Positions 8,004-63,988 of a stretch of 64,000 nt of DNA are shown here, piece after piece. Both the position numbers and the translations under genes were made by a program. Origin of the DNA: an uncultured Candidatus Saccharibacteria bacterium (GTDB taxonomy: Bacteria; Patescibacteriota; Dojkabacteria; SC72); assembly GCA_964514595.1 (NCBI GenBank), contig CAZEQZ010000001.1, positions 43,914 through 107,913 of the forward strand, in the 5' to 3' direction. Under the pieces are notes generated by a model. The model saw nothing but the letters and a program-made list of their open reading frames with translations. It had not been told where the DNA came from and did not search any database. Position 1 is the stretch's first letter, and every line of letters starts with the position of its first letter.

Positions 8004-8128
8004 GAATTTCGACTTTCTATTCGGTTTTAAGTGTACAAAGTACACTGTTCGCTCTTTAGAACTGAAGTCCTGTTGGTCTTTCGAAAGAAAGACCCCCAGG
8101 CAAAAGGACTTGATATATCGAATCTTTT

Positions 8129-8247
8129 TGCCTGGCGATTGTAGCAGAGTGGAACTACCTGACTCCATCCCGAACTCAGAAGTAAAACACTCTAGCGCCG
8201 AAAATACTTGGACCTTTGGTCCTGGGAAGATAGGTCATTGCCAGGAT
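8129..8247 (+). rRNA. rrf: 5S ribosomal RNA
   Basis: TGCCTGGCGATTGTAGCAGAGTGGAACTACCTGACTCCATCCCGAACTCAGAAGTAAAACACTCTAGCGCCGA...GCCAGGAT matches the bacterial 5S consensus. Confidence 0.85.
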
Positions 8248-34800: not shown

Positions 34801-35240
34801 CTGATGGTAGTAATAATACCGGGACAATGATCGCAGATAGTGATGCCTCATACAATTCTATGAACTACTATCAATGGAATAGTTCCGAATCTACACTACA
34901 AGATTACGATATCAGGCTAAGATTTATGCTTCCCTCTAACTTCAGTGGTTGGGGAAGTGGTGGAGTTACATTCAATTTTGTAACAGAAGCTACTGCAACA
35001 TCTAGTAATGAATTAGATTTCTATATATTTGAGGAAAGCTCTGGAAGCGTAGATGGAAGTTCGGAGAACCAAGTTTCCTCCTCTGCAGGGATATGGACCT
35101 CAACAACAATCTTAGGCTCATCCCTCACAGAGTGTGTCTCAGCAGGAGATGTATGTATGTTCGTTATTAAAATGTCTTCTAGAAATGATAATTATGTAAG
35201 GGTAGGTGATATAGAGATAGTATATGACAGGAAACTATAA
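22887..35240 (+). CDS. giant (4117 aa) secreted/surface modular protein: four beta-helix-like modules with Gly/Cys-rich tracts and two CBM-like beta-sandwich domains
   Basis: N-terminal hydrophobic signal/anchor. Four copies of an approximately 450-aa module (GDEVLIINLQGTYSAM.NVGNYETL...NTQRVM.QRVP.Y...FYPS.WNG.KGGV.FFRA.G ... GGGI..I......V.G..S..G ... GG.GG.GRIAIYY). Two copies of an approximately 280-aa domain ending (I/F)Y(L/I)DNV. Uninterrupted ORF. Confidence 0.85.
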   Translation: MQEKYCLKLVKNIFIFLGILLPTFFLFFIEKSYALSTNTINLQGKIVRNDTGYEGLNVTTGNPSCVVAGSSNDTCDFRVRYYSAASGGTLFLTEVFSNKEIGQYNGAFNLSLGSDPSPTAGSYSSLDALVAAENTVYIEIGFDPAGGNSYTETFTRMSLQATAFAMRSKYASHANTAFQFDTAANSSGYASPSAGMVYWDTTDSTLKVYDGASWVDIGSGGTGSSLWTQGTGFAYLTTLTDSLVLGADSYTAIGSDTYSTYVAGLGARPPFSFDMGAERASISGDTAKSGLTVYSNYTSTGAWPLVLFKTESSNFDNLVLEIVQDGTGHLMSLKKGSTEVFAFENPMTFFIRPRDDAPTIYENRLYNVGGTLYWNGTALGGGSSSLWTDDGTYTYLTDTTDDVIIGGDSALNAQFYFDVANGRLGIGTGTPTSRLDIAGASSIISNSSGDITISPDETVVIKAQNTDPNNLMEWQNSSGTVLSLINQSGYASLGKSTGSTTAMLSLGANTASVAQLNLAASSAIDVSSPNTGDLWYNGTNLYFYDGTDHIDLLVGNSDGVGLFSEHGSVASGSYLNVEHNDDTYNILADGWICVGGSENESCTGGNWKNIKEESISIRHALKEDWEDAGSTGIIRTDVRDTSVSLSPAFNPGTGADGDVTVQYNTNINTTSLSAGRSCADGGDAVNYNITAFPSSTTATLSATPSTGCLAVGDEVLIINLQGTYTAMDNVGNYETLEIANVSGTTITFKTAKKNYYGDGLADDTNLGTSTSTQRVMLQRVPNYRNLTVNSGVNFYPSTWNGVKGGVIFFRASVSANINGTIDVSGIGYRGGSAGGNLQGSSGGEAFCGPGGAGATTTTNGTSGAGGGGGYNGYLGGNGYCGGGGGASNGSTLGLGSANRGGSGGGSEYAAAGSGGGYGTAGSGGANYTAGSNAPSGGTNASGDGTLSTSVTYSGGGGGGTYGEANLSKLFFGSAGSGGTVGTAGVSGSGGIGGGIIAVYSKSVVVSGMVSSRGTGGASATVANAAGAGAGAGGSILLSGESVNTGTSFVGASGGAGGTSTGWVGVNGGAGGDGRIAIYYSDSYSGTTANPSVTNYYQSGYNSYGIYNSPVIATPNAQTYDNIRWSQDLDTYGNISIQTRSGNSTNPLDASWEEWRPFVVNQNYIMLESADTHTNWSGTNATVSEGDVTRNVDYFEDEDETTATNVTKVVSSTNGGYVEAAVSNEDLSNYDYITAWVRASQIGNTLRLGFGESAGTEQYEDITVDASDTWQKIYWDISDIATGDRDDVTVLRLTNKTGSSNTIYLDNVRAEKLITDNDGSDISSTPNNYMQYRVVFSTTNLAYQPILRNITISYNSGYRIVIHDNNNVRVYNYSGSTKYLKLDVATSGGGGGGSGTGFVAGVATSTIADGEDAVAFTFNTPTSYTDPSSKLLSVMNNSVEKMYLDSNGNLYVAGSVIAGNGFGSGLINNTGGAVTERTLVTIDPSTNDSFITTNIENQMGAFGVVTGVSVSGDINKNGVCDDGDTCMVVFEGITNVNTYDATTASVGDYIYSYSEYGYAKASSEQENGLIGMVMSTENAASGYLKIVFFTQNKSAADFYLNVGFDKNAYRDMYTLLAKDYEALSLAERRGLIESNQSESIMFDTFVDGLKIDSENSDVGLDIYNQKMGLWGGLSLTDSTTDMASNRYFGTTGATLIDAAYYYDRSQTGEVGQDSTIGDLITDGIDPYWYKGVSYISGTTALSAKYNGLLFNVTGAYGTSSEHGSIEIEVASQTVSGITANISSSDGTCTATGATLTFGNEYSFTSGSCSGSSIKITPQRTDYAVGDKFKIASWYLEPTTANDRGSRRDFPERSIIIPTATAGDIYITIVDYDTQRVWMKFNSDTDAIATGNILIDNADKDINKIFMINGDMYVDFTTVSSNVDAIVVGFARDDAWAVNGATWYKYDTNIGLRNNGDGYTTTTNPYTFSDGDGSGVSFVGLDYEVFGSSTIKGIDSNAEDTTGIYYSNPVTFQYNSNKAYLWMNAYIDPDDTSGDISVSVSNDGGSTYVAGSLIRATGSTVKEYEYSFNLADSDNEYIVKIELERGSSKKSTVYVNSWGLAQMDISGVGGGGLFTNTENAVPHKGYVEVLHGQNTNNILATGWVYNTNLARWIKTSESSISVSHVKDSDWLKDPDMIPATPIWVDPITGEPGELDAGTGADGDITVSTNSDINVNKLITSRNAACPDAPNYNITTFSVDGTEATITPAADTANSCLSPGDEVLIINLQGTYSAMVNVGNYETLTIDSIDVTGTTITFTEAKSNYYGGNINDDSNLGTATNTQRVMMQRVPQYDDVTVNAGINFYPSAWNGIKGGVMFFRATGEVNINGTIHADGKGYLGATQHGGYSYAGGGGGEAFCGEGGDGSTTNGTDGAAGGGGGASGGLGGDGYCGGGGGGRVIEDPGRGSVGQGGAGGGGGRYSGGGGGGYGTPGSGGHRSFDNYGEDGGANTSGDGGVSTGTGAGGGGGGSYGIESLSKLMLGSGGGRGGNQTSPMLGGAGGNGGGIVNIAGGTIRVNGALSSNGVNGANGASGTSYYTGGGGGGAGGSVRVEGGVVNIGSSLLAANGGDGGIGRISNVATQNGGAGGDGRIAIYFATSYVGISGTPTVTNFYTVGEEVVQNPSSGSDGDLTLSTAGTVNINRTSPMGVRSCSDGGDAVNYNIVAFNVAGNEATLSVSPSSGCLDSGDEVLIINLQGSYSAMNNVGNWEILTIDEVVGTTVTFTTTKTKYYGNNLDDDTNLGTATNTQRVMLQRVPQYEDVTIGVGVTLEPDAWNGVKGGVMFFKASGSVSINGNISASSKGFLGGVTEGGYNHGGGQGGDSLCGPGGSPGRVVSGGDGAGGGGGYTAGTGDGYCGGGGGGEPTGGIGSVTSGGAGGGGGRRAGGGAGGYGTAGTSGTYNALTYGATDGGTNSSGDGGAVATGIGPGGGGGTYGDEQLTKLFLGSGGGRGGNNASPQLGGAGGNGGGIVYIVADSVTVSGTLASNGATGGNGASGTSYYTGAGGGGSGGAVRVEGRTVNIGSSALTVTGGSSGVGRFNNTAVNNGGTGGSGRVAVYYTDTYSGTSGTPAVTNFYELDPSTVGDEDVEAPTGIIRAMIGLTEISLESGIDVGDGRDGNVTVAYNTNINRTSLIAGRSCADGGDAVNYNVLAFNSAGTEATLARAPSLGCLNAGDEVLVINLAGTSSAFFNVGNYETFRVQSITGTTVRFTTAKTKYYGNNPNDDSNLGVANNTQRVMLQRVPNYQNLTVNNGVTFYPDEWSAEAKENSVYREGKGGVMFFRATGSVNINGTISASGKGYRGGGRTVQGIYEGFKGESYTGGYNLYTSWSPNGGGGGGGGDYSVSSNTEAGGAGGSYGTKGQDGGAGGTFGDQTKGIAGDIYAVGEDLSDRIYFGSGGGAGSNDNDTANGPYGGAGGDGGGIIGVFSGSIVVSGSVANNGDNGEAGYRGSASDNETGGGGGGAGGSIYLAGAGVSVGSSLVTVNNGIGGLAGETAAAEAGGVGGLGRIAIHYSETYSGTSGNPTVTNFYEGSSYSYGMYHSNEIVTKGAGSFSDLRWDYNNNGYGRISVQTRTGATADSTDGSWEEWRSTSPTYEAQSLNDAENASSWVGTNVVVSDGDVTRDVDFFEDEDEFTTGSITKMISSTNGGYAESTISSTDLSGYEYITFWVKASVLGQKLSFSMGESSGDEHTEDIVIDSLEWQKVYWDLADIPAENRDAITKLRITNLSSVINTFYIDNVSAEGRGTSSIDRINSTPNDYLQYRVIFTTTDSRYRPELQSISFTYNIGYEIVQIDTNRVRLYNYSGYTQKLRLDIATGGLMIDLRSSLGSSTVNLAPTIAQQDWDDYTNSLWVNKTGTEGNFMRFQQYGVDKFVLSADGTMEMRGGTITLGDTGLKGSIRFNTGTNKLEFSNDGSTWIPVADSLSAVTLAAEYSGAVLSADGSNNTGTMIADSDASYNSMNYYQWNSSESTLQDYDIRLRFMLPSNFSGWGSGGVTFNFVTEATATSSNELDFYIFEESSGSVDGSSENQVSSSAGIWTSTTILGSSLTECVSAGDVCMFVIKMSSRNDNYVRVGDIEIVYDRKL
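24790..26175 (+). repeat. beta-helix/Gly-rich module copy 1 (coding repeat)
   Basis: Amino-acid-level repeat, about 60-70% identity in core blocks to the copies at 29462, 30860, 32310 and 48805. Confidence 0.6.
29462..30830 (+). repeat. beta-helix/Gly-rich module copy 2
   Basis: As above. Confidence 0.6.
30860..32220 (+). repeat. beta-helix/Gly-rich module copy 3
   Basis: As above. Confidence 0.6.
32310..33575 (+). repeat. beta-helix/Gly-rich module copy 4
   Basis: As above. Confidence 0.6.
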
Positions 35241-35271: not shown

Positions 35272-38200
35272 ATGAGAAAATTTGATGTATTAAAACTTAA
35301 AAAAATATCTAAGCGAGGAAGATTAAGAGTATTAATACTTCTTCTCATTGGTATTTTGGTATCAGTATCTGCTCTGTGGTTTTCTTCCCTATCTAAGACC
35401 AAGCCAAATGATGATATATTTTTCCTAGATACCAATAGTGGGGCAATACTTGGTAACAAAAATCCAACATTTAATGTAAGCTTTGGAAAGAGGGATGAAC
35501 CTGAAAAGCAGTGGGTTAGATTTGAAGCCCAAGTTAGTTCACAAAATCCGTTCGAAGGGAAAAATGAGAATCTTTTCACAAAATTAGCAGACTTGTTCAA
35601 ACGGGAGAAAGAGTACGGCATAGAAATGAGTTTGAATGGTGTTGTACTTAGTGAAACAGAGAAACTAGATTTGGATGGAAAAGAAGAGGTAATTAAAACT
35701 GTTGCAGACATTCTTGGAACAGATGATGTTAGAACGTCTACGGAGTTGATAGAAAGTGGTAGGGTAATAGGGGAGTATAGTGAGGAAGCAGTATCAAAAA
35801 AGAGTGTATTAAACAAAAATGTTGCGGATGGGGTTGATATTGAGTATCAGATATTGGAAGGTTTGGGCTTAAAGGAAGAAATAGTGATACGAAATCTAGA
35901 TGAATATACAAAAGGTTGTGGAGAGGATTTAATGGGGTGTAAGTTGCCTCTTAATGAGTTTAATTTTGATCTCAAACTGGATGAGGGTTTAGAATTACGG
36001 AAAGGTTGGTTAACTTTGAAGGGTGGGAGTACACAGACATACTATTTCACTGATAAGGACGGTAATTATGTAGCGCATTTTCTTCCCAACTGGGCGATAG
36101 ATAGTGCTGGAGAGAAGACATATGATGTTCCTATGCAAGTAGAAGATGCAGGTGGCGGTAACTACAGGATTAAGGTTATAGTTGATATAGAGTGGTTATT
36201 TAGTCCTGGAAGAGTATATCCAATAAGGATAGATCCAAGCATAGTTCATGATACTAAGAATCAATTCGATCAGGGAATCTTTGATAGAACTAATAGTTCT
36301 GATGATCCTGCAATTACTATTACTAACGCAAACAATTTCTTGCATGAAATATATGCATTCACATCAGATGGGACATTTTCTCCACCTCTAGGAGTTACTG
36401 AAGTAAAAGTATTAGTTGTTGGGGGAGGAGGAGGTGGTGGATCATCAGGGGGTAGTGCAGCAGGAGCAGGTGGTGGTGGTGCAGGCGGTTTAGTATGGGA
36501 AGATTCATATGTATTTTCATCTTTAGAAATAGAAGAAGGAGTACCAATAACCGTGGGTAGTGGAGGAAGTGGAGGGGCTAGTGGTGATAGCAATGGACAG
36601 AATGGTGGAGATAGTACATTTGGTACATTAACAGCCATTGGAGGAGGTGGTGGTGGACACAGAACTTCGAATGGTGGTGATGGAGGTTCTGGTGGTGGTG
36701 TAGGTGGTGCTACAGTAACACCTGGGTCTGGAACTGTTGGACAGGGGCACGATGGAGGAAATGGCACTACCAGTGGAGATGGTTCTGCAGGGGGTGGTGG
36801 TGGTGCCGGAGAAGCTGGGTATGATTTTATTAGTGGAAGCTTTGGAGGAGCTGGTGGAGTTGGTATTTATTTAGGGAATATGTTAGGTGATAGTTTAGGA
36901 GATGATGGTTGGTTTGCAGGAGGAGGAGGTGGCGGTGCTACCGTGCATGCTGGTGGTACAGGAGGAAAAGGTGGTGGTGGTACTGGTGGTGTTTCGACCT
37001 CTAATGCCCAAGATGGTGTGGCAGGTACAGGTGGAGGTGGAGGTGGAGGTGGAAGAAGTGGATCCTCTGGTGGTTCTGGTGGCTCTGGTATAGTTATCAT
37101 TGCTATACCCAAAAAACACTCATATGGTCAATATATATCACCCGTTATAGATTTTGAAGACTCATACTACGTCGAACATATGTCTTTAGATATATCTGGT
37201 GTTCATACAGGTGGTGGGGAAAATATGTATAGTACAGTGGGTTTGGAGGCTCAATGGAATTTCAATGAAATATGGGGTGATGTTGCAGAAAATAATGATG
37301 GAACTTGCGGAAGCTCTTGTAATGCTAATCTTGTTAATTTCTCAAATACATTAGCACAGGATATACTGCCTATGAGTGGTTGGACATATATTAATAGGAA
37401 ATGGGGGAATGGTTCCATAATGATTGATGGAGTAGATGATTATATTAATTTAACCACACCAATATTCACTGCGGAAAATGGCTCTTTCTCTTTCTGGTTT
37501 AGAAAGGATATAGCTCCATCCTTTTTAGAGTGCTTCTTTGGTTATTTCGAGACATCAGTAGCAGACTCTTGTGTCGGTATAAACGATGAAGGGAAGATAG
37601 TTATTGAAGATCTAGCTTTTGCGAGCAATATTTCCTCCGAACAATCATATGCCGATGGAGAGTGGCATCATGTTGTTGTTAATGGTAACTATACAGGAGA
37701 TACTTTAGAGCTTTGGGTCGATGGGATTTTGATATCTACGTCTAAATGGGAACAGCCTGCCTATATGACTACTCAATTGCTTGGTGCTAGATATAATGAA
37801 AGTACTGGGACCCCGGAAAATCTCTTTAGAGGGATGATAGATACGGTTGTAAAGTACAATCGTCCTTTATTAGCTTCGGAAATACTTTCTAATTACCAAT
37901 CGGGCAATGTTGAGTTCAGATACAGAACTAGTAACGATGGTTCGACATGGGGCGTTTGGGAGGGTGGTGAGGAGGCAGATGTAGATATAACCCAGGATTA
38001 TACAAAATGGTCTGACTCAGTATCCGATACTCGTATACTGCAACTGAGTAATGATTCGAACATAAAGGTTGGGGTAAATGATAGTCTAAGAGTTGATTCA
38101 GATTATACTAAAGTTGATACAGTCAACGGCTTGGTCGGACTTTGGCATTTAGATGAAGAGTCCGGTTCTGGTGCGTATCTCCTAGATTATAGTGATAACG

Positions 38201-40182
38201 ATAATCATGGGACTCCAAATGGCACTACATATGTAGAGGGCAAAATAGGGGGAGCTAGGGATTTCGATGGGTCAAGTGATTATATTAGTACAGATTTCAG
38301 TAGTGAGGCAAGCTCTCTTTTCGCAGACTCAAGTGGATCTTGGACTGTAGAAGCATGGTTTAAACATAAAGGGGGGATGAGCTCTGATGGTGTTATAGTT
38401 GGGAGGGGAGGGGGAACTGGGACTTCAGCTACATTTGGAATATTTGTAAATAGTAGTGGGGCACTTCGTACTGTTCTAAGAGGTTCCTATACCACCTTGA
38501 TGAGCAATGTTGCTAATGATCAATGGTGCCATGTTGTAGTAACTTGGACGGGCGGTGAAGCTAGAGGTTATGTAAATGGAGAGGATGTTGGAACTCTTTC
38601 TGTTGGATCTGCTTCCCTACAATCAAATAATCTCGTTATAGGGGCTACCAACAATGGCTCAAGCGCGCGCTATAGAGGTCAGATAGATGAGGTTAGAGTA
38701 TACGAGACTGCTAGAAGTGGGAAAGAAGTAGCAGAGTCATACAGGATGGGTAAAAATCATTATGTATACAGTACACTAGAAACGGGTATGGATCTGTCAG
38801 AAAGCACAAAGATACCGTTTTGGATAGCATCTGACAAATTGGGCAGTAACATAGATTTGATTGTGGGGAATTCTCCAAGCTCTAACTATTTGACAGATTC
38901 TAATGTAGTTGGATTATGGAAGATGGATGAGATGTCAGGTTCTGGTGCATACATTAATGATAGTAGCGGAAATGATAATCATGCTACTCCATCGGGAACA
39001 ACTTACACAGAAGGAAGGGTTGGAGGTGCAAGGTATTTTAATGGAACAAGTGATTACATGCTAACTAGTGATTTTGGTTTTGATTACGACAACATTACGA
39101 TAGAGGCTTGGGTTAAACCGGAAGATTTAAGTGGAAGAAGAACTCTCTTAGATCTTGGGGCTGAAACCACTTTGGTTCCTCAGTTAGAGGTGGGAACATG
39201 TGATGGTGGATCTAACGCAATCTGTGTTGTCACGCCTGGTGTATGGCAGGCTCAAACAGTCGACAATGTTATCTCAGAAGGAGAGTGGGTACATATTGCC
39301 TATACTAAGGAAGGAACAGGAGCTACACATAAAATATATGTTAACGGAGTAGAGCAACCTCTTGTAACGAATAATAGTGAGACCTATAGCTCTACGTCGG
39401 TAGGAAAGAATATTGGAAGACGTGGTGATAATACGCAGTTTTTTAATGGGAACATAGATGAGCTTCGCATCTCTGATATAGTACGCACAGGTGAGGTAAT
39501 TAGGGAAGCATATGAAATTACAAAGAGAAAGTATTCTATAAAGATTGACTTCAAAGCGGACCTTCAGTTATCTAACTTGATTTCAGACTCAAATGATCTA
39601 TCCTTTACAATTAGTGAGACCTCATATGGCACAACAAAGGAGATAGAGAACTTAAGTCTCTCGGATAGGATAATTATAAAAGAATATGCCGATTCTGCAG
39701 AGTATATTGCACAAGGCGTCGTAGACAGCATAAACGAAGACACCGGAGCAGTGACAGTAGAGCAGTGGGAATTAGGTAGTACATTTCCTTCTGGTGGATA
39801 TTCAGAGGACGCAGTTGTATTTAAATGGCAGGAAGAAATATTTGATATTAGGGATATTCTAGACACCCAAAGAGATGATATATCTACGTTTATGCTTGTA
39901 CTAAATAATCAAGTAGGGGCAAACTACTGGATAGATGGTATAAGGAGTGCCAAATATCTTGCACCTCTAGATTTAAGTCAAGGTTTAGGAGATCCAACGC
40001 AGTATTTCCAGTATAAGATTATGTTCTCAACCTATGATGAGTACATAACCCCCACTCTAAACAAGGTCCAGATAGACTATACCTCTGAAATACTTGTGGA
40101 GCCACCACTGAGAAGAATAATGAGACATGGTAAATGGTTCTATACGGGAGAGGAGCAGCCCTTCTGGTGGGCACAGGAGTAG
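35272..40182 (+). CDS. giant (1636 aa) surface protein: N-terminal TM, Gly-rich tract, three concanavalin-A-like/LamG (Laminin_G_3-type) lectin domains, C-terminal CBM-like tail
   Basis: Three repeats, each with (W.LDE.SGSGAY..D.S.NDNHGTP.GTTY.EG..GGAR.F.G.SDY...), W..EAW.K and W.H...T core blocks; the third ends G.IDE.R.Y/IS. Tail shares Y.QY.I.F.T motif with the upstream giant gene. 32-nt spacing suggests co-transcription. Confidence 0.85.
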   Translation: MRKFDVLKLKKISKRGRLRVLILLLIGILVSVSALWFSSLSKTKPNDDIFFLDTNSGAILGNKNPTFNVSFGKRDEPEKQWVRFEAQVSSQNPFEGKNENLFTKLADLFKREKEYGIEMSLNGVVLSETEKLDLDGKEEVIKTVADILGTDDVRTSTELIESGRVIGEYSEEAVSKKSVLNKNVADGVDIEYQILEGLGLKEEIVIRNLDEYTKGCGEDLMGCKLPLNEFNFDLKLDEGLELRKGWLTLKGGSTQTYYFTDKDGNYVAHFLPNWAIDSAGEKTYDVPMQVEDAGGGNYRIKVIVDIEWLFSPGRVYPIRIDPSIVHDTKNQFDQGIFDRTNSSDDPAITITNANNFLHEIYAFTSDGTFSPPLGVTEVKVLVVGGGGGGGSSGGSAAGAGGGGAGGLVWEDSYVFSSLEIEEGVPITVGSGGSGGASGDSNGQNGGDSTFGTLTAIGGGGGGHRTSNGGDGGSGGGVGGATVTPGSGTVGQGHDGGNGTTSGDGSAGGGGGAGEAGYDFISGSFGGAGGVGIYLGNMLGDSLGDDGWFAGGGGGGATVHAGGTGGKGGGGTGGVSTSNAQDGVAGTGGGGGGGGRSGSSGGSGGSGIVIIAIPKKHSYGQYISPVIDFEDSYYVEHMSLDISGVHTGGGENMYSTVGLEAQWNFNEIWGDVAENNDGTCGSSCNANLVNFSNTLAQDILPMSGWTYINRKWGNGSIMIDGVDDYINLTTPIFTAENGSFSFWFRKDIAPSFLECFFGYFETSVADSCVGINDEGKIVIEDLAFASNISSEQSYADGEWHHVVVNGNYTGDTLELWVDGILISTSKWEQPAYMTTQLLGARYNESTGTPENLFRGMIDTVVKYNRPLLASEILSNYQSGNVEFRYRTSNDGSTWGVWEGGEEADVDITQDYTKWSDSVSDTRILQLSNDSNIKVGVNDSLRVDSDYTKVDTVNGLVGLWHLDEESGSGAYLLDYSDNDNHGTPNGTTYVEGKIGGARDFDGSSDYISTDFSSEASSLFADSSGSWTVEAWFKHKGGMSSDGVIVGRGGGTGTSATFGIFVNSSGALRTVLRGSYTTLMSNVANDQWCHVVVTWTGGEARGYVNGEDVGTLSVGSASLQSNNLVIGATNNGSSARYRGQIDEVRVYETARSGKEVAESYRMGKNHYVYSTLETGMDLSESTKIPFWIASDKLGSNIDLIVGNSPSSNYLTDSNVVGLWKMDEMSGSGAYINDSSGNDNHATPSGTTYTEGRVGGARYFNGTSDYMLTSDFGFDYDNITIEAWVKPEDLSGRRTLLDLGAETTLVPQLEVGTCDGGSNAICVVTPGVWQAQTVDNVISEGEWVHIAYTKEGTGATHKIYVNGVEQPLVTNNSETYSSTSVGKNIGRRGDNTQFFNGNIDELRISDIVRTGEVIREAYEITKRKYSIKIDFKADLQLSNLISDSNDLSFTISETSYGTTKEIENLSLSDRIIIKEYADSAEYIAQGVVDSINEDTGAVTVEQWELGSTFPSGGYSEDAVVFKWQEEIFDIRDILDTQRDDISTFMLVLNNQVGANYWIDGIRSAKYLAPLDLSQGLGDPTQYFQYKIMFSTYDEYITPTLNKVQIDYTSEILVEPPLRRIMRHGKWFYTGEEQPFWWAQE

Positions 40183-46407: not shown

Positions 46408-47334
46408 TTGTTCCCCAGACTATATGTTAAAATGACATATATGCAAGATCCATTAGAAATAGTAAAAGAGGCTGATAAATATCGAGAACAGGAGGGTGAT
46501 ATTCAAAAGGGCATTACTCTTTTGGAGAAAAATTTAAAAGAATTGGAGAAAGATCCTATTATTCTTTCTTTCTATATCCCGCTGTTTTTAAAGAAATTAG
46601 GAAACTTCTACAGAGATATTGGCGACACAAAGAGAGCCAAAGAGCTATATCAGAATGGTTTGGAAGTAGCCAAGAATGACTTAAATAGAATGGAGGAAGC
46701 CGATATATTGGTATCTATGGCTTTCTTGGAGCTTAAAACTGGTACTGCAAAAGATGCCCTTAAGTATGCACTTAAGGCTTGGGAGTATATAGGGCCTAAG
46801 AGAGGTGGTAAGTTTGCAGAAATAAAGGTTAATACCCTAGCTGTGTTAGGGAATATCCATTTTGAGCAAGCAGACTTAGAAGAGGCATTGAGGAGATATG
46901 AAAGGGCCCTTAGAATATCGGAAAAATATAAGATTAAGAAAAGAATCATAACTGTTTCTGGAGACATAGCTAATGTATATATTATGCTTAAGGAAGAGGA
47001 GAAGGCATTACGTATTCTAGAAAAAGTTTTGCCCTTAGCAGAGGAATTGTACCAAGTTGCACTTCCACAGATACATATGAGAATTGGAAAGCTGAATATG
47101 GCAAAAAGAAATTATGAGAAAGCAAAAGGGAGTTTCCGGGTTGCCTTAGATATCTCGGAAACCATGGGCTTGTCAAGGGATATAGGGGAGTCGTATGAAA
47201 ATCTAGGTGATGTATCAGCGTTAGAAGATAGCCATGAGGCTAAAATCTATTATGAAAAAGCCTTGACTCAGTATAAAAAGAGTGGGTTAAGTCCCCACGT
47301 CGAGTCCGCAAATAGGAAGCTTAAGACGGTTTAA
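46408..47334 (+). CDS. tetratricopeptide-repeat protein (true start probably an internal Met)
   Basis: Multiple 34-aa TPR-like repeats (AKELYQNGLEVAK..., ALRRYERALRISE..., AKIYYEKALTQYK...). Confidence 0.65.
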   Translation: MFPRLYVKMTYMQDPLEIVKEADKYREQEGDIQKGITLLEKNLKELEKDPIILSFYIPLFLKKLGNFYRDIGDTKRAKELYQNGLEVAKNDLNRMEEADILVSMAFLELKTGTAKDALKYALKAWEYIGPKRGGKFAEIKVNTLAVLGNIHFEQADLEEALRRYERALRISEKYKIKKRIITVSGDIANVYIMLKEEEKALRILEKVLPLAEELYQVALPQIHMRIGKLNMAKRNYEKAKGSFRVALDISETMGLSRDIGESYENLGDVSALEDSHEAKIYYEKALTQYKKSGLSPHVESANRKLKTV

Positions 47335-48328
47335 CACTTGCCAATTGCCCACATGCTGCTTTGATATCATTCCCGTATGAGTGCCTGAGTGTGTTATTAA
47401 TACCTCTGGAATCAAGAATATTTTGGAAGGCTAGTATAGACTTTTTGATACTTGGTTGAAATGGTATACCTGGAGAGTCATTAAACCCAATTAGGTTAAC
47501 TAAGGCTATTTGGTTTTTAAGTAGCTTTGATAGCTGTATCGCATGCTCTGGTTGATCATTTATATTTTTCAAAAGTAGGTATTCATAGGTAATCTTTTTA
47601 TTTGATTTTTTCTGATAATCTATTAGGGTATCAATTAAATCATCCAAGTGATTCTCTTTGGAAACTGTTGGCATTATGTTTTCTCTTAAAGCTTGTGTAG
47701 GTGCATGTAAACTCACAGCTATCTTTACCCCCAGATTACTTTTTAGGAACTTTTTCAACTGTTCTATATACCCAACAGTTGATACAGTAATTCTTCTTCT
47801 CCCTAGGGCAACCTTGTCGGGGTGCGTTAAGATTTTAATAGCTTCTGTGACATTTTCTAGATTTAGCATAGGTTCTCCCATACCCATAAATACAACATTA
47901 GTAATAGTTTGTCCTGTAGTACTGAGCTGTCTTTTAAAATACATAATCTGATCAATAATCTCTTGTACATCCAAATTTCTATTAAACTGCATTTGCCCTG
48001 TGGCACAGAATTTACATCCAACAGGGCAGCCACTCATGCAGCTAACACATATGGTATTCCTGCTTTTTGATTTCATAAGGACTGTTTCGACAGGATATCC
48101 CTCTGAGGTATAACTAATTGTCTTTATAGTTCGTTTGTCATCGGATTTGTACTTCTGGAAACCTAACAACTTGGAGAAGGGAACCTGTTTTGAAAGCTCA
48201 TTTCTAAGGGTGATGGGCCATGTAGAGAGTTCATCCCACGATGCAATATTATTGCCGTAGTATTGGAGATTTATCTGCTTTAATCTGTAGCTTGGTAGGT
48301 TGTTTTCTAGTATGAATTTCTCGAACAT
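47321..48328 (-). CDS. rlmN: 23S rRNA (adenine2503-C2)-methyltransferase RlmN (radical SAM)
   Basis: CVSCMSGCPVGCKFCATG radical-SAM cluster. MGMGEPMLN. C-terminal C-x-GQL motif. Confidence 0.9.
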   Translation of the reverse strand: MFEKFILENNLPSYRLKQINLQYYGNNIASWDELSTWPITLRNELSKQVPFSKLLGFQKYKSDDKRTIKTISYTSEGYPVETVLMKSKSRNTICVSCMSGCPVGCKFCATGQMQFNRNLDVQEIIDQIMYFKRQLSTTGQTITNVVFMGMGEPMLNLENVTEAIKILTHPDKVALGRRRITVSTVGYIEQLKKFLKSNLGVKIAVSLHAPTQALRENIMPTVSKENHLDDLIDTLIDYQKKSNKKITYEYLLLKNINDQPEHAIQLSKLLKNQIALVNLIGFNDSPGIPFQPSIKKSILAFQNILDSRGINNTLRHSYGNDIKAACGQLASVKPS

Positions 48329-48406: not shown

Positions 48407-50134
48407 ATGTTTAGGATAAATCAGAAGGCTAAACTCTTTTTAGCTGTTGTTGTATTTCTTCTATTAGCACCATTGACAATCTACTATGTAGTGGATGGAG
48501 TTTTTGACTTAAGAAGTAGGGCAGGTGATCCTGATGTATTACCTGAGGAGTTTAAAATTGCTGATTTGAATGCAGATAACAAAATTACTATAGCTGACTT
48601 TAGTATATGGTTGAGTAATTTTAGACAATTCAAATTAAATCCGGCAGCATTCAATGCCATGAGTGATTTGGATAAGAATGCCGCTATAACGATCTCCGAT
48701 TTCGCGATATGGTTAGATCTATGGAGAAAGTATAAGGTATACAATTTCGGGGGAGATGGAGGAGTGACACCTCCTATTATTGTAGAGTCTCCGCTATTTG
48801 GAACTGGTACCGATGGAAGTGTTTCAGTAAGTGCTGATACGAATATTAATACCTCAACAATTTCATCAACTAGATCTTGTGCAGATGCCAAGTCATATAA
48901 TGTCGTTAAGTTTGATTCTGATACGGTAGTACAGGTCAATGAAGGTGTTAGTGAGGCTTGTATAAAGACAGGTGATGAGGTTTTGGTTTTGGGTCTAGCT
49001 GGAACAGAAACAAATGTGGAGACAGTGGGGAATTATGAGACATTTATAGTGGCAAGTGTAGCGGGGGATAAAATAACTTTTGCAACGGCCAAAACTAAGG
49101 CATTTGGTAATAAGGCTATAGTACAAAGAGTTCCTCAGTATGAGAATGTTAGTATTGCTGCAGGAAAGAGTCTATATCCTTCTGCTTGGGATGGGACCTC
49201 TGGTGGTGTTGTTTTCTTTAGGGCAACAGGGAGGGTAAGTGTAGAGGGGACAATACATGCAGATGGTATGGGGTATAGAGGTGGAGCTGCATCTTTGAAT
49301 AATGGTCAAAATTCTAAACCTGGAGAGGGAGCTATCCCTTCTAGTGGTACAAATGGTCAGGGTGGAGCTATTGGTCAGAATGGTTTTGCTGGGACGTTTA
49401 GTGGTGGAGGTGGTGCAGGGACTTCTATGAAAACAGGTGGAGTAGCTTCCACACTTCTAGGTTCTACAGGAGGAGGTGGAGGTGGTGGTGCAAGTAGCGG
49501 GTCAGGGAACGATTTCGGTGGTTTTGCAGGTGGAGGAGGAGGTGGTGGAAATGGTACAGGTGGAATAGGGGGTAAAAGCGCAGAGTATGGGACTAGTACT
49601 GTTGGTGCTACGGGTACAGATATGGCAGGTGCTGGTGGTAAAGCAGCAAGGGGATCTAAAACAGTAACCGCGACAGGTAGCACTGTTTATAAAAAACAAG
49701 CAGGAGGAGGTGGTGGCGGCGGTGCAACTATAGGTACTGCGAATCTTTTAAAACTAACTTTTGGAGGAGGAGGTGGTGGTGGTGGCTGCGGAACTGGTGT
49801 TGAAAAACAAAACAGGCAGGGAACTTCTGGAACAAATGGAGGTGGCATTATATATATTGCTGCCAATGAAATAACAGTTACAGGTGTTATTTCTGCCAGA
49901 GGGCTAGATCCCGTTGTTCCTAGTTATCGTGCTGGAGGGCAGGGTGGTGGTGGTGCAGGTGGTTCTATTAAGTTAATAGGAAATATCTTGAATTTAGGAA
50001 CTAACAAAATTTTAGCAACTGGTGGCGCAAATACAACAACTGGAGGAACTGGTGGGATGGGTAGAATTGGAATACAGTATATGAGTACATTTACTGGATC
50101 AACTAATCCAGTCTCTGCAAACTCAAAGATTTAA
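48407..50134 (+). CDS. secreted protein with N-terminal dockerin-like Ca-binding repeat pair followed by one beta-helix/Gly-rich module (paralogue of giant-protein modules)
   Basis: Signal/TM peptide. Then ADLNADNKITIADFSIWL and SDLDKNAAITISDFAIWL, both fitting D-x-[DN]-x-[DN]-x-x-I-x-x-x-D. Then GDEVLVLGLAGTETNVETVGNYETF...VQRVPQYENV...VFFRATG...GGGIIYIAANEITVTGVISARG...GGMGRIGIQY. Confidence 0.75.
   Translation: MFRINQKAKLFLAVVVFLLLAPLTIYYVVDGVFDLRSRAGDPDVLPEEFKIADLNADNKITIADFSIWLSNFRQFKLNPAAFNAMSDLDKNAAITISDFAIWLDLWRKYKVYNFGGDGGVTPPIIVESPLFGTGTDGSVSVSADTNINTSTISSTRSCADAKSYNVVKFDSDTVVQVNEGVSEACIKTGDEVLVLGLAGTETNVETVGNYETFIVASVAGDKITFATAKTKAFGNKAIVQRVPQYENVSIAAGKSLYPSAWDGTSGGVVFFRATGRVSVEGTIHADGMGYRGGAASLNNGQNSKPGEGAIPSSGTNGQGGAIGQNGFAGTFSGGGGAGTSMKTGGVASTLLGSTGGGGGGGASSGSGNDFGGFAGGGGGGGNGTGGIGGKSAEYGTSTVGATGTDMAGAGGKAARGSKTVTATGSTVYKKQAGGGGGGGATIGTANLLKLTFGGGGGGGGCGTGVEKQNRQGTSGTNGGGIIYIAANEITVTGVISARGLDPVVPSYRAGGQGGGGAGGSIKLIGNILNLGTNKILATGGANTTTGGTGGMGRIGIQYMSTFTGSTNPVSANSKI
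48805..50131 (+). repeat. beta-helix/Gly-rich module copy 5 (in separate gene)
   Basis: Same block order as the copies inside 22887..35240. Confidence 0.6.
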
Positions 50135-50162
50135 TTAATATGAATTAAGGAAGGATAATTAT

Positions 50163-50770
50163 TTATTCTCCCTTTTTCTCTGTTAATCCTCCAATGGCCA
50201 ATATGAAAGCTATTAGAGTTATTACTCCAGCCAATACATATAAAGCATTGTCAGAAAGAAATGTAGATACTTTGTCGAACAAAGAATCTTCGCTTGTTTC
50301 TATCTCTTCTGTTACTTCCAAATCATCAGAACCTAGATTCTCAGGTTTATTAACGTTTAATATCTCTCCAATAATCAATGAGCCAAAATCTAATGTTTTC
50401 TCATCAACATAGAAGAAATAATCCTCTGATTCTGTCTCATATGTAACAGTAGCTAACACTCCAGACATCTCTGTTTCTGAATCATTAAAGCATTCGATGC
50501 TTATCTTTTCATCATCAAACTTTGCATTACCTCCGAAAGTACAAAATCCTTCGGAAGGTGTAACCTCCTTTATGGTTACATCTTCAGAATACAAGATGTT
50601 CATATCTAAACCATCAACATAGCTACCATTAGAGTGTACTATTACAGAAAGAGTGCCTTCCTCCCTATTATCTTCCAATTCTATACTTACAGCAGCATAT
50701 ACTTTGCTTGAGAAAATAAAACCAAAACCTACGAATAATAACAATCCAAAGATATATTTCTTGAACATAA
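50163..50770 (-). CDS. small cell-surface protein: signal peptide, cohesin-like beta-sandwich domain (tentative), acidic linker, C-terminal TM anchor
   Basis: Signal peptide MFKKYIFGLLLFVGFGFIFSSKVYA (start at 50770 preferred over 50822). About 130-aa domain with alternating beta pattern and a GVLATVTYE block. C-terminal LYVLAGVITLIAFILAIGGL + KKGE. Confidence 0.55.
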
Positions 50771-50906
50771 TTAAGATTAATAATAAATTATTCCTTAATC
50801 CAGAGTAGCAGAGTGAAAACATAATGTAAAGGGTTCCTTAATTTAATTGACAAAGGGAAATATTTATTGCAATATATTAATTAATGTAAATTTAAGAAAT
50901 ATTAAT

Positions 50907-51614
50907 ATGAACTGTCCTAGAAGAAAATCTTTCTCTTTGGTATTATTTCTTCTTTTCCTCTCGGTATTTATTTCTTCTCCGACACATGTTCAGGCGGATT
51001 ACGCCTCCATAGCTCTATTACCCTCTACAGGGACTATATATGCAGACTACACGGCTCTTTCTTTAGTCGTAAATAGTGGGTCGGATGAGTTCTACGGTGT
51101 TGATGTTAATATTGCATTTACAGGAAGTGTTGTATATATGGAATCAACTGGGGCTAGCAGATGTAGTAGTTTTGTAACGACCGGTGGGGCAGGTACAATT
51201 AATGTTGAGTGTCTCTCTACTGCTCATGCAGAGGGGGAGACATATAGCGGTGTTGTTGCAACTCTCTATTTTAGATCTACAGGCACAGGAACCTCTACAT
51301 TCACCTTCACAAGTACAGATCCAAATATATTAACTAAAACGGGGGGGACATATACGCTCTCAACTGAAAATAATCCCGTACCAAGAGGTGGGAGTGCTGG
51401 TGGTGGTTTGCCAGAATCGGGCATATTTGATGACACAAGAAGCATCATAGCGATAGGGGCTGTACTCATGTTAGTTGGTATATTCTTTAATCAGGTAAAT
51501 CAATATACTGTGTCACTACTAGGCAATATCTCCGGAAAAGTGAAGGAGAGTAAACAGAAGAGGGAAGAGGAGAAAATTTCTAAAAGAAGGGGTAAATTAG
51601 AGAAAAGATTTTAA
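50907..51614 (+). CDS. small cell-surface protein: signal peptide, cohesin-like domain (tentative), LPESG sortase-type sorting signal with TM and basic tail
   Basis: Signal peptide MNCPRRKSFSLVLFLLFLSVFISSPTHVQA. Domain containing FYGVDVNIAFTGSVVYMES and YSGVVATLYFRSTGTGTSTFTF. LPESG, then hydrophobic IIAIGAVLMLVGIF, then K/R-rich tail. Confidence 0.55.
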   Translation: MNCPRRKSFSLVLFLLFLSVFISSPTHVQADYASIALLPSTGTIYADYTALSLVVNSGSDEFYGVDVNIAFTGSVVYMESTGASRCSSFVTTGGAGTINVECLSTAHAEGETYSGVVATLYFRSTGTGTSTFTFTSTDPNILTKTGGTYTLSTENNPVPRGGSAGGGLPESGIFDDTRSIIAIGAVLMLVGIFFNQVNQYTVSLLGNISGKVKESKQKREEEKISKRRGKLEKRF

Positions 51615-51620: not shown

Positions 51621-53006
51621 ATGTTCAAAAAACAAGAAGATTCTTATTCAAATAGATATATAGCGCCTAAGGGTTGGAAACCGAAGAACCCTGATGAGGA
51701 CTATGTAATAACATATTTAGATATTGAACTAGCTGATGGGGTAGAGATGAATCAGTTTGAGACTGTTGTTGCCGCATGCGCTGCAGAAAGCTCTACTGGT
51801 ACATGGACAAAGGTGTATGACGGAAAGGATTCAGGTGTCCCTATGGCAGACAAAATGAGGGCTATTGCTTTTGATCTAGAACCTGAAACAAAAACGTTTA
51901 AGATAGCATATAGGCAAGATTTGTTTGAAACGGACAATATGTCGGGCTTATTGGCTGGTATAGTGGGGAATGTTGGAGGAATGAAAATGCTTAAAGCGTT
52001 AAGATGTTTGGATATTAGATTTCCTAAGTGTATGGTGCAGGCATTTCCTGGCCCTCAGTTTGGTATAGATGGAGTTAGGGAACAGCTTTTGGTAGAGGAG
52101 GGTCCATTACTTCTCACGGTTCCTAAGCCTAAGATAGGGAGAACCGCAAAGGAGCAAGCGGAATTGGCTAGGATTCTATTTACAGCTGCAAATGGAGAGT
52201 ATCACGGTATAAAAGATGATGAAAATTTAACGAGTCTCTTTTTTAACACATTTGACGAGAGGTGTGAAAGAGTACATAAGGTAAGGAGAGAAATAGAGGA
52301 GAAGAGTGGAAAGAGAAAATTCTTCCTATGTAATATAACTCATTCAAATCTGGATACAATGATATCTAGGGCTGACAAAATTAAAGCACAAGGCGGTAGG
52401 TGGATGATGATGGATGTTATAACTACTGGTTTTTCCGCTGTTCATACAATGAGATTAAAAAATCCAGGTTTAGCTATTCATGCACATAGAGCTATGCACA
52501 GTCTCTTCACTAGAGAGTCCGGACCTGGTGTACATGATAAGGGGGAAATTGTTGATTTCTCAATGTCCATGGTTGCAAATGCAAAAATAATGCGTCTTCT
52601 GGGTGTAGATTCCTTCCATGGTGGTGCTCCTAAAACTAAGATGGAAAACTATGGAGAGCCTAAATTAATAAGGGATGTTTTACAACTTGATATAACTCCT
52701 GAGTCGTCTATAACATTAGGACAGAACTGGTTTGGAATGAAGCCGGTATGGCATGTTGCATCTGGAGGTCTTCATCCTGGAAGTATACCTGAGGTTCTGC
52801 ATCAACTCGGAGAGGACATAATGATACAGTGTGGTGGAGGAGTATTAGGTCATCCTTGGGGCATAGAGGCGGGAGTAGAGGCTGTTGTACAAGCTAAAGA
52901 GATAGCATTGGGTAGAGGTAATGTTGATGATTGGATAAAAGAGAATCCGGATAGTGCACTAGCCAAAGCAGCACAGCATTGGGGATTTGATCCTAGAATT
53001 GTTTAA
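51621..53006 (+). CDS. rbcL: ribulose-1,5-bisphosphate carboxylase/oxygenase large subunit, form III or II/III-like
   Basis: GTWT. VPKPKIG (K175/K177 region). GIKDDEN (carbamylated K201, D203, E204). IHAHRAMHS (H294/R295/H298). ASGGLHPG. QCGGGVLGHPWG. All catalytic blocks present, so not a RuBisCO-like protein. Confidence 0.9.
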   Translation: MFKKQEDSYSNRYIAPKGWKPKNPDEDYVITYLDIELADGVEMNQFETVVAACAAESSTGTWTKVYDGKDSGVPMADKMRAIAFDLEPETKTFKIAYRQDLFETDNMSGLLAGIVGNVGGMKMLKALRCLDIRFPKCMVQAFPGPQFGIDGVREQLLVEEGPLLLTVPKPKIGRTAKEQAELARILFTAANGEYHGIKDDENLTSLFFNTFDERCERVHKVRREIEEKSGKRKFFLCNITHSNLDTMISRADKIKAQGGRWMMMDVITTGFSAVHTMRLKNPGLAIHAHRAMHSLFTRESGPGVHDKGEIVDFSMSMVANAKIMRLLGVDSFHGGAPKTKMENYGEPKLIRDVLQLDITPESSITLGQNWFGMKPVWHVASGGLHPGSIPEVLHQLGEDIMIQCGGGVLGHPWGIEAGVEAVVQAKEIALGRGNVDDWIKENPDSALAKAAQHWGFDPRIV

Positions 53007-53038: not shown

Positions 53039-54514
53039 ATGTCAAACAAAGGTATAACCCCTAGGGAGAAAAGCTATTCAGAATGGTATCTGGATATAAT
53101 AGAAAAAGCCGAACTAGCAGAGAATTCGTCTGTTAGAGGATGTATGGTGATTAAACCATACGGTTATGCAATATGGGAAAACATTCAAAAAGGTTTGGAT
53201 GAGATGATAAAAGAGTCTGGTGCTAAGAATGCATACTTTCCAATATTTATTCCCCTGTCATTTCTGTCTAAAGAAGCTGATCATGTTAAAGGTTTTGCGA
53301 AAGAGTGCGCAGTGGTAACCCATCATAGGCTTAAAGAAACAGAAGATGGGAAGGGGGTAGAGGTTGATCCAGAATCAAAATTGGAAGAGGAGTTAATAGT
53401 TAGGCCAACTTCCGAAACAATAATATATGATACATTCTCCACATGGATTAAGTCTTGGAGAGATCTTCCATTGAGAATAAATCAATGGGCAAATATAGTT
53501 AGATGGGAGAAAAGAACCAGGCCTTTCTTAAGGACTGCAGAATTTCTTTGGCAGGAAGGACATACAGTACATTTAACACATAAAGAGGCCCAGGAGGAGG
53601 TTCTGAGGGCCTTAAACATGTATGTAGAGTTTGCAAGGAAGTATTTAGCTATGGAAACATACTATGGTAAAAAATCAGAATCAGAAAAGTTTGCAGGGGC
53701 TGTAGATACATACGGTGTAGAAGCTATGATGCAGGATGGAAAGGCTCTTCAATTTGGAACTTCTCATGATTTAGGACAAAATTTTGCAAAGGTATTTAAT
53801 ATTCAATTTGCAGACAAAGATGGTACTCTTAAATATCCATGGCAAACAAGCTGGGGTGTTAGTACAAGAATGATAGGGGCATTAGTTATGACACATAGTG
53901 ATGATAATGGGCTTGTTTTGCCTCCAAGTATAGCACCAGTAAAGGTTATATTAATACCTATATTCAAAGATGAGAATAAGGAAAAGGTCCTTGAATATAG
54001 TAAGAGTGTTAAGAAGGAGCTTTCTAAAGGCATTTTTGATGTAGAGTTGGATGATAGAGATTTTGTATCACCAGGTTTTAAATTTAATGAGTGGGAGAAA
54101 AAGGGAGTTCCTATTAGAATTGAGATAGGACAGAAAGAAATGGAGAATGGTGGAGTTGTGCTTGTTAGAAGAGATACATCTGAGAAGATCCAGAATGGAT
54201 TTGGAGATCTATCTAAAGTTGTTAAAAAGACCTTGGAAGATATTCAGAAAAACCTATATGAAAAATCTAAAGAATTATTAGTATCTAAGACCTATAGGGT
54301 GGAGGAGTTTGAAGAACTAAAGAAGACTTTTAAATCTGGGAAGGGTTTTGTTCGTGCGAATTGGTGCGGGGATCCTGAATGTGAGGAGAATATTAAATAT
54401 CATACAAAAGCAACGACGAGATGTCTCACAGAAGATGGAGTAGGTGTGAAGGGTAAATGTGTATACTGCGGTAAAGATAGTAATGAGGAGTGGATATTTG
54501 CCAAGGCGTATTAA
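53039..54514 (+). CDS. proS: prolyl-tRNA synthetase, archaeal/eukaryotic-type with C-terminal zinc-binding domain
   Basis: N-terminus SYSEWYLDIIEKAEL...RGCMVIKPYGYAIWE typical of archaeal-type ProRS. Class II motifs. C-terminal CGDPECEE...CVYCG. Confidence 0.88.
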   Translation: MSNKGITPREKSYSEWYLDIIEKAELAENSSVRGCMVIKPYGYAIWENIQKGLDEMIKESGAKNAYFPIFIPLSFLSKEADHVKGFAKECAVVTHHRLKETEDGKGVEVDPESKLEEELIVRPTSETIIYDTFSTWIKSWRDLPLRINQWANIVRWEKRTRPFLRTAEFLWQEGHTVHLTHKEAQEEVLRALNMYVEFARKYLAMETYYGKKSESEKFAGAVDTYGVEAMMQDGKALQFGTSHDLGQNFAKVFNIQFADKDGTLKYPWQTSWGVSTRMIGALVMTHSDDNGLVLPPSIAPVKVILIPIFKDENKEKVLEYSKSVKKELSKGIFDVELDDRDFVSPGFKFNEWEKKGVPIRIEIGQKEMENGGVVLVRRDTSEKIQNGFGDLSKVVKKTLEDIQKNLYEKSKELLVSKTYRVEEFEELKKTFKSGKGFVRANWCGDPECEENIKYHTKATTRCLTEDGVGVKGKCVYCGKDSNEEWIFAKAY

Positions 54515-63403: not shown

Positions 63404-63988
63404 CTACTCTCTAAATGCAGTAATAATTGCTTCTGCTATATTAACAGGTTCTCCCTCTATCTTCTGTTCATATGCCTTATACCCAGGATGAAAACTAATC
63501 TCTTGTACGTGGGGTTTGTCATGTATATACATAAAATCTACAGCCATAAAGTCAGCTTCTAACAATGAAGCAACCTTTTCTGCAATACCCTTTATCTCTT
63601 CATTTGGTTCATTGTACATCTCGTATTCTCCTCTAAGTACTGTCATAATACCTTCTGATGCTTTTCTTCTCCATCCTGCTACTACTTTTCCTAATTTAAC
63701 AAATATTCTCATATCTTCTCCTGCATCAGAAAACTCCTGTATAAAGAAATCAACCATGTTCTGCTCTGATAGTTTTTCCTGATCTATATCATCTTCTCTG
63801 TCCAGCTTAAATACATTCTTTTTCACTTTCTCCTTCCCATCTATGATTTCTAGACGATTCTTTCCGGTATATTCCTTAATTATTAGAGGGTACTCTTGTA
63901 GCATGTCTCTTTGGGCTTTGTAGTTACCATCGCTTCTGTAGTAGGTATTAAAGAAGGGAATATTATGCTTATTACAAAACATAGCCAT
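63404..63988 (-). CDS. ATP-grasp-fold protein, C-terminal part (gene probably extends beyond window end)
   Basis: C-terminal ATP-grasp-like blocks (DMRIFVKLGKVVAGWRRK ... MAVDFMYIHDKPHVQEISFHPG). ORF reaches the last 12 nt of the window. Confidence 0.45.
   Translation of the reverse strand: MAMFCNKHNIPFFNTYYRSDGNYKAQRDMLQEYPLIIKEYTGKNRLEIIDGKEKVKKNVFKLDREDDIDQEKLSEQNMVDFFIQEFSDAGEDMRIFVKLGKVVAGWRRKASEGIMTVLRGEYEMYNEPNEEIKGIAEKVASLLEADFMAVDFMYIHDKPHVQEISFHPGYKAYEQKIEGEPVNIAEAIITAFRE

Follow-up and report, generated by a model that had tools for sequence, protein, structure and literature searches.

A form III-like RuBisCO large subunit with a complete active site, encoded beside proS on a Dojkabacteria contig

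What is a gene for the large subunit of RuBisCO (the carboxylase/oxygenase that acts on ribulose 1,5-bisphosphate) doing in a genome region that holds none of the usual pathway partners of this enzyme? The question is raised by a 64,000-nucleotide stretch of contig CAZEQZ010000001.1 (assembly GCA_964514595.1; positions 43,914 to 107,913 of the forward strand), called the window here, from an uncultured Candidatus Saccharibacteria bacterium that GTDB places in the Dojkabacteria. The gene, rbcL, lies at 51621..53006 on the plus strand. The original prediction, made from the DNA letters alone, took its product for a RuBisCO of form III or II/III-like type. We find that the 461-residue product is a RuBisCO large subunit with a complete active site. 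Sequence comparison places it in the form III-like clade known from CPR (candidate phyla radiation) bacteria and DPANN archaea; it is not a form II/III enzyme, a canonical form III-b enzyme or a RuBisCO-like protein (RLP). By analogy with related systems, it probably carries out the carboxylase step of an archaeal-type AMP/nucleoside salvage pathway.

Active site and form of the enzyme

The open reading frame (ORF) of rbcL starts with ATG, and its annotation draws on the ORF itself, Pfam, NCBIfam and a structure predicted with AlphaFold2. Pfam resolves two domains, both on the plus strand. The N-terminal domain RuBisCO_large_N (PF02788, E 2.1e-25) comprises residues 24-137 (51690..52031) and bears E56, T61, W62 and N117. 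The catalytic TIM barrel RuBisCO_large (PF00016, E 6.6e-53) comprises residues 149-454 (52065..52982) and covers positions 2-299 of the 299 in the profile. Residues were mapped onto spinach RbcL, whose sequence was checked to be identical to PDB entries 1ir1/8ruc. All 19 catalytic and ribulose 1,5-bisphosphate (RuBP)-binding residues compared are kept. In the N-terminal domain, spinach E60, T65, W66 and N123 correspond to E56, T61, W62 and N117; K175, K177, K201, D203 and E204 correspond to K169, K171, K198, D200 and E201. H294, R295 and H298 are found as H289, R290 and H293, H327 and K334 as H333 and K340, and S379, G380, G381, G403 and G404 as S381, G382, G383, G405 and G406. Each motif quoted in the original prediction could be located: GTWT at residues 60-63, VPKPKIG at 167-173, IKDDEN at 197-202, HAHRAMHS at 287-294, SGG at 381-383 and GGGVLGHPWG at 405-414. 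The claim of a genuine large subunit thus stands.

The activation and metal-binding motif GIKDDEN (52206..52226, plus strand, by alignment to spinach RbcL) contains K198, the counterpart of the carbamylated lysine, and the Mg ligands D200 and E201. These three positions are invariant across an alignment of 53 III-like sequences. The loop 6 region HGGAPKTKME (52617..52646, plus strand, by the same alignment) carries H333 and K340. Among the active-site positions, the sole differences from spinach are T173V, where valine is also present in the A. fulgidus form III enzyme (8dht), and L335M, seen as GKM in P. horikoshii (2cwx). Apart from L335M, the active-site pattern is that of the solved A. fulgidus enzyme. 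The same full pattern occurs in 111 of 121 III-like clusters and in 42 of 48 related loci. These 48 comprise 45 species loci at 51-94% identity, mostly from Candidatus Dojkabacteria with a few Gottesmanbacteria, obtained from a GTDB scan with one genome per species, and three others.

The AlphaFold2 model, built from the 53 III-like sequences, has a mean predicted local distance difference test (pLDDT) score of 88.6 and a predicted template modeling score of 0.91. Its top structural match is the T. kodakarensis type III RuBisCO in complex with 2-carboxyarabinitol 1,5-bisphosphate (3a12), with template modeling (TM) scores of 0.87/0.92 and a root-mean-square deviation of 2.3 Å. Confidence is lowest for the first 10 residues, the final residue and residues 291-310. 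In blocks of 10 residues, the mean pLDDT is 52 for 291-300, 57 for 301-310 and 85 for 311-320. The low-confidence region includes the start of an insertion at residues 304-314 (VHDKGEIVDFS; 52530..52562, plus strand), just past the HRAMH motif, which appears as an alignment gap in 8dht, 2cwx and spinach. The insertion is common to all aligned III-like sequences and absent from these three references. III-like insertions have been described as "mostly 11 amino acids" (Jaffe et al. 2019, PMC6389311). The usual insertion of form II/III enzymes has 29 residues, as against the 11 found here.

Profile searches point to a relative of form III. The best NCBIfam model is rubisco_III (TIGR03326); its curated cutoff is 497 bits, and the window protein reaches 375. 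A form I-type subfamily model follows just behind with 368 bits. With NF010002, the form II model, the score is 174 bits, where 489 would be required. RLP models, including MtnW and OiaX, reach 113-152 bits, far under their cutoffs. The top relatives in the Protein Data Bank (PDB) are the archaeal form III enzymes 8dht (267 bits), 2cwx (262) and 1geh (256), with form I next. The form II/III structure 5MAC, which R. rubrum form II matches with 336 bits, is absent among the best 60 PDB hits. Identity is 40% to A. fulgidus form III and 28% to R. rubrum form II.

Much closer relatives are found among environmental sequences. More than 100 cluster representatives in a collection of 5.8 billion proteins are 61-95% identical to the window protein. 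Three entries of the NR database are named "RuBisCO long chain, Form III-like [uncultured bacterium]" (P0084, P0088 and P0116): two full-length ones are 70-71% identical over 97% of the length, and a shorter one of 426 residues is 67% identical. Identity rises to 80% for "Ribulose bisphosphate carboxylase, type III" of candidate division WS6 bacterium GW2011_GWC2 (P0022) and to 85% for a Candidatus Dojkabacteria bacterium protein (P0017). When 1.84 billion representatives at 50% identity were searched with HMMER, just two related full-length clusters were recovered, at 62% and 54% identity, and the next was at 41%.

The phylogenetic placement suggested with the original prediction was made with a neighbor-joining (NJ), not a maximum-likelihood, tree of 111 sequences over 409 columns, with 100 bootstraps. 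The references comprised sequences of spinach (form I), R. rubrum (form II) and A. fulgidus (form III-b), each of them verified, and the isomerase-fused III-c sequences P0124 and P0128, with no labelled member of forms II/III, III-a or IV. In 99 of 100 bootstraps the window protein falls together with the sequences named III-like. This clade has the III-b representatives as its sister group and stands apart from forms I, II and III-c. We assign the protein to the form III-like clade because of its identity to the named entries, the bootstrap value and the 11-residue insertion. Of the original alternatives, the relationship to form III is upheld and form II/III is not.

Likeness to the archaeal III-b enzymes is nevertheless considerable. 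Those of T. kodakarensis (1geh/3a12), P. horikoshii (2cwx) and A. fulgidus (8dht) have the same fold (TM 0.87-0.92), a single large subunit, the same active-site pattern apart from L335M, and the same proposed role of turning nucleotide-derived RuBP into 3-phosphoglycerate (3-PGA). The window protein differs in being only about 35-40% identical, in scoring under the TIGR03326 cutoff, in its insertion and in its mesophilic bacterial host. It is highly improbable that the protein is a canonical archaeal III-b enzyme or that it belongs to the II/III type known from Methanococcoides/Peregrinibacteria: although the nearest solved enzymes, the top NCBIfam model and the sister group in the tree are all of III-b type, III-b falls short on the model cutoff, on identity to A. 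fulgidus relative to the III-like family, on the drop from 54% to 41% among representatives and on the missing insertion, and II/III on the R. rubrum identity, the form II model score and the place of 5MAC in the PDB search. Form IV was rejected as well. RLPs share the superfamily fold and lack key catalytic residues, whereas the window protein has all of them and none of the catalytic-residue substitutions. The original statement that it is a carboxylase and not an RLP therefore holds for its second half; for the first, the residues suggest that the protein would be catalytically active.

Partner genes and the proposed role

The original prediction had also noted that the usual partners of RuBisCO are missing from the region. 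Pfam scans of the window took in all ORFs of at least 110 residues outside the ribosomal RNA (rRNA) operon and not nested in a longer annotated ORF. They revealed no small subunit, phosphoribulokinase (PRK) or carboxysome gene, all of which belong to the RuBisCO of the Calvin-Benson-Bassham cycle. The published form III-like enzymes of CPR and DPANN likewise lack a small subunit and PRK. The search was extended by 10 kb beyond either edge, about 84 kb in total, using exact-protein look-ups for the flanks. Neither AMP phosphorylase (PF00591, PF02885, PF07831) nor ribose-1,5-bisphosphate (R15P) isomerase (PF01008) was found in this span, and the same holds for small-subunit and carboxysome genes and for PRK, nucleoside phosphorylase and phosphoribosyl pyrophosphate (PRPP) synthetase domains.

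We also searched 66 loci with tblastn for the two AMP-pathway partners, using as queries the T. kodakarensis AMP phosphorylase (verified against PDB 4ga5), a CPR AMP phosphorylase and two CPR R15P isomerase domains. The CPR queries were derived from the III-c locus L019, where an IF-2B::RuBisCO fusion is followed by deoA. Neither the 45 species loci nor the other III-like loci gave a match within 10 kb of rbcL; the sole matches came from two III-c loci, L019 and L020. Since no partner lies within 10 kb of rbcL in any III-like locus searched, the absence of linkage to deoA and e2b2 is a trait of the whole III-like clade, and the prediction that the partners, if present, are unlinked is borne out. 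Tight linkage and fusion of the partner genes are reported mainly for form III-c (Jaffe et al. 2019, PMC6389311), and the arrangement in the window agrees with that survey. Form III-c also occurs in CPR hosts, including some Dojkabacteria, with the same proposed pathway (PMC6389311). Its genes either form e2b2-rbcL-deoA operons or encode a fusion with the isomerase, as we observed in L019, L066 and L187-L189, whereas the window gene is 38-39% identical to III-c, unfused and without a partner within at least 10 kb.

Gene fusions were seen in several places outside the window. In the Microgenomates-like loci L019 (10001-13540) and L066 (3598-7171), an AMP phosphorylase gene that is short at its N-terminal end comes after the IF-2B::RuBisCO fusion, and both lie between ruvX and yceG-rpoB. 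In L019, argS is just upstream of the fusion, as it is near rbcL in Dojkabacteria. Among the 50% representatives, P0229 is a TIR-domain::RuBisCO fusion of 583 residues, and in P0152 (1265 residues) an APH-type phosphotransferase domain comes after the RuBisCO core.

The AMP phosphorylase was also sought by its DNA. A degenerate pattern for the motif SSRAIT..GTAD retrieved at least 120 metagenomic loci (L067-L186), all encoding AMP phosphorylase homologues. Many of these loci are on contigs of 58-74% GC, and AMP phosphorylase is therefore widespread well beyond archaea and CPR. The flanking genes of these loci gave no match to the window genes. Two contigs that had been candidates for carrying the host's AMP phosphorylase were discarded: L134 (Ga0334885), from a neighbouring series of samples, has 65% GC and is from a different organism, and a further one proved to be an unrelated e2b2-rbcL-deoA operon. 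In a tree of the AMP phosphorylases, L163 and L118 are CPR-like candidates.

In published CPR genomes with RuBisCO, among them five WS6 bins with the III-like form, all have homologs of AMP phosphorylase and R15P isomerase and no PRK (Wrighton et al. 2016, PMC5113843). For WS6, the conversion of 3-PGA to pyruvate, acetate and ATP is described as essentially the sole central metabolism (Wrighton et al. 2016, PMC5113843).

In the pathway that we consider most likely for the window protein, activation would proceed by carbamylation of K198 and binding of Mg2+ by D200 and E201, as expected because the active site is complete. The enzyme, with the large subunit as its only subunit, would then carboxylate RuBP, giving two 3-PGA molecules. 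Thermococcus and the published WS6 genomes suggest by analogy that RuBP would be drawn from scavenged nucleotides and not from the Calvin cycle. An unlinked DeoA-type AMP phosphorylase would convert a nucleoside monophosphate and phosphate to R15P, and an unlinked isomerase of the e2b2/IF-2B type would convert R15P to RuBP; deoA and e2b2 would thus presumably be found elsewhere in the host genome. The 3-PGA would enter lower glycolysis and yield ATP by substrate-level phosphorylation. The AMP pathway of archaeal form III-b RuBisCO was reportedly set out by Sato et al. in 2007.

Degenerate orthologues and alternative functions

Several observations weigh against the salvage carboxylase. The only published assay, on recombinant WS6 RuBisCO proteins of unstated form, detected no RuBP carboxylation; an enzyme of OD1 (Parcubacteria) had weak activity in the same study (PMC5113843). 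Three full-length orthologues that occupy the same position, downstream of a divergent radical SAM (rSAM) gene and upstream of proS, have lost catalytic residues (L012:10001-11371, L061:10001-11329 and L190:911-2293). In spinach numbering, the substitutions are E60Q, K175I, K201Q, H294S, H298N, H327E and K334Q in L012 (protein P0118) and K175Q, H298N, H327Q and K334N in L190 (P0050). Because such same-slot orthologues have lost catalytic residues, it appears from their sequences that carboxylation is not indispensable in the Dojkabacteria lineage. Homologue searches with the CPR-like AMP phosphorylases L163 and L118 returned only Parcubacteria-type relatives (Kuenen-, Falkow- and Kerfeldbacteria; Paceibacteria/Minisyncoccia) and no Dojkabacteria. 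There is also no obvious Shine-Dalgarno sequence before the start codon of rbcL.

The degenerate orthologues resemble RLPs that were derived within the III-like clade, and could account for the lack of activity of the WS6 clones tested by Wrighton et al. (2016). At least three lineages have lost K175, K201, H294, H327 or K334 and retain a full-length ORF. For this reason the clade could be a natural series of transitions from carboxylase to RLP, or a second, non-carboxylase role could maintain the protein, with the window copy in the ancestral state. The III-like rbcL would then have held a long-standing place in a Dojkabacteria housekeeping block beside proS and not with deoA and e2b2. We regard this reading as unlikely.

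That the window protein itself is no carboxylase in vivo, despite its intact residues, is quite improbable. It would be an RLP with a reaction of enolase, isomerase or decarboxylase type, or would have a structural or regulatory role tied to its housekeeping neighbours. The assay of the WS6 proteins, the full-length same-slot orthologues without K175, K201, H294, H327 or K334, and the linkage to deoA/e2b2 in none of the 48 loci are all consistent with such a role. However, the residues for carbamylation, Mg binding, enolisation and carboxylation are all kept in the window protein, and the presence of the same pattern in about 90% of the clade argues for purifying selection on a carboxylase site. 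In addition, the authors of the 2016 paper attributed the WS6 result to catalytic residues missing from the tested clones (PMC5113843); the window copy keeps all catalytic residues, whereas those clones do not.

A working carboxylase could also be supplied with RuBP by another route: a PRK-type kinase in a partial Calvin-like scheme, a nucleoside phosphorylase with ribose-1-phosphate kinase, or PRPP. PRK homologues are present in Gottesmanbacteria that have III-like and III-c enzymes (Jaffe 2019, PMC6389311), and the ribose-1-phosphate kinase and PRPP routes have been discussed as alternatives (Wrighton 2016, PMC5113843). In the III-like loci of Gottesmanbacteria, rbcL is followed by genes for a small P-loop kinase and a HAD hydrolase, and the AMP phosphorylase of the host was not located in the searches made. 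In L010 (11396-12892; Gottesmanbacteria), the kinase has 183 residues and is AAA_33/zeta-toxin-like; given the PRK homologues reported in this group, its context may be relevant to an alternative supply of RuBP. We nevertheless consider a different source very unlikely in the present host: PRK, nucleoside phosphorylase and PRPP synthetase domains were not found in the window or the 10 kb on either side, PRK is reported only for Gottesmanbacteria and Peregrinibacteria and not for Dojkabacteria, and the WS6 genomes are reported to have both AMP-pathway genes (PMC5113843).

Genomic neighbourhood and what the finding means

The host is a CPR bacterium, as indicated by a gene order shared with named Dojkabacteria/WS6 genomes and by the bacterial rRNA operon in the window. 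This operon is complete, with 16S rRNA at 2936-4483, tRNA-Ile(GAT), tRNA-Ala(TGC), 23S rRNA at 4869-8005 and 5S rRNA at 8131-8246. The 23S match measures 3137 nt against a model of 2925 nt, which probably reflects an insertion of about 200 nt, as is common in CPR rRNAs. Pfam identified the housekeeping genes leuS, argS, proS, a trpS/tyrS-type gene, a clpB-like gene, radA, rho, uvrA, mreB and comEC. Such housekeeping genes, combined with surface proteins that are very large and poor in Pfam matches, are a typical feature of CPR genomes.

The original prediction had named a surface protein and proS as the neighbours of rbcL, and both are there. Upstream, the rbcL start is 6 nt past the stop of a 255-residue ORF without a Pfam match. 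Downstream, after 32 nt, Pfam identifies proS, a class II prolyl-tRNA synthetase gene (53039..54514, plus strand). Between positions 50000 and 55000 no terminator-like site was found, compared with a mean of 2.8 in shuffled sequence. Promoter-like sites around rbcL numbered 16, with no excess over the shuffled mean of 16.0. Because of the 32-nt gap and the absence of a terminator-like site, rbcL and proS could plausibly be co-transcribed.

The Dojkabacteria-type loci share the order argS ... radical-SAM(-) / rbcL - proS / uvrA(-) - PEGA(-) - trpS - mreB, and the block of the rSAM gene, rbcL, proS and uvrA is kept over about 40 Dojkabacteria species. In the window, the rSAM gene, identified by Pfam as the conserved divergent upstream neighbour, is at 47321..48328 on the minus strand. 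Among the 48 loci, proS follows rbcL in 38 and the rSAM gene is upstream in 26, immediately adjacent in L006-L009. In Gottesmanbacteria-type loci, the context of rbcL differs from that in Dojkabacteria. The rbcL region of the WS6 GW2011_GWC2 assembly (L008, GCA_000991605.1) is syntenic with the window, with RuBisCO proteins that are 80% identical. The exact RuBisCO protein is present on 14 public contigs, including an ENA contig of 639,453 bp with identical gene order, and in NCBI on a contig of 760,270 bp; NCBI, JGI, ENA and Logan assemblies all contain it.

In the window, three Pfam-less genes for putative secreted or surface proteins separate the rSAM gene from rbcL (48407..51614). They encode 575 residues (plus strand), 219 residues (minus strand) and the 255 residues mentioned above (plus strand), and all three products have signal-peptide or transmembrane-like ends. 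The trio is complete in only 5 of the 48 loci, with the 255-residue gene alone in 4 more, whereas rbcL-proS is near-universal in Dojkabacteria. The trio is therefore a lineage-variable insert without an evident functional link to RuBisCO, and its position next to rbcL is coincidental, as originally suspected. No cohesin match was found in the three genes. The one hint of a family is a Dockerin_1 match below threshold (E 0.11) in the 575-residue protein, whose body is rich in glycine and whose N-terminal part has two EF-hand/dockerin-like repeats.

Other large genes lie further away. An ORF of 4117 residues at 22887-35240 has no Pfam hit, and a protein of 1636 residues at 35272-40182 has three Laminin_G_3 (LamG-type) matches and a glycine-rich domain; we presume that both are giant surface proteins like those of episymbionts. 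At the other end, just past the last position of the window, L017 (3441-9190) continues window positions 63404-63988 with a minus-strand run of four RimK/ATP-grasp genes and a 7TM transglutaminase-like gene. This run, beside an HD-domain gene, looks like a cluster of the peptide-ligase type.

The enzyme class, the host phylum, the proposed role in nucleotide-ribose fermentation and the loose linkage to deoA and e2b2 were already published between 2016 and 2019. Compared with the form III-like RuBisCO of CPR and DPANN (Wrighton 2016, PMC5113843; Jaffe 2019, PMC6389311), the window protein belongs to the same clade, has the same 11-residue insertion and comes from the same host phylum, the ultra-small Dojkabacteria/WS6. 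Nothing substantive differs; the window copy is intact, and some orthologues (L012, L061, L190) are degenerate. Form III-like is also a named clade in a 2026 survey, where it makes up 2.5% of RuBisCO sequence diversity. An identical protein is publicly available; what was found is a known enzyme class in a known host and in its usual genomic setting, with little import beyond correct annotation. Its value is modest: an intact form III-like reference on a near-complete Dojkabacteria contig, against which the degenerate orthologues from the same slot can be set. The biochemistry of the III-like clade is sparse, consisting of one inactive WS6 test and one thermostability value for a Kerfeldbacteria enzyme. 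The one mildly novel point is that orthologues which remain in the rbcL-proS slot have repeatedly lost catalytic residues.

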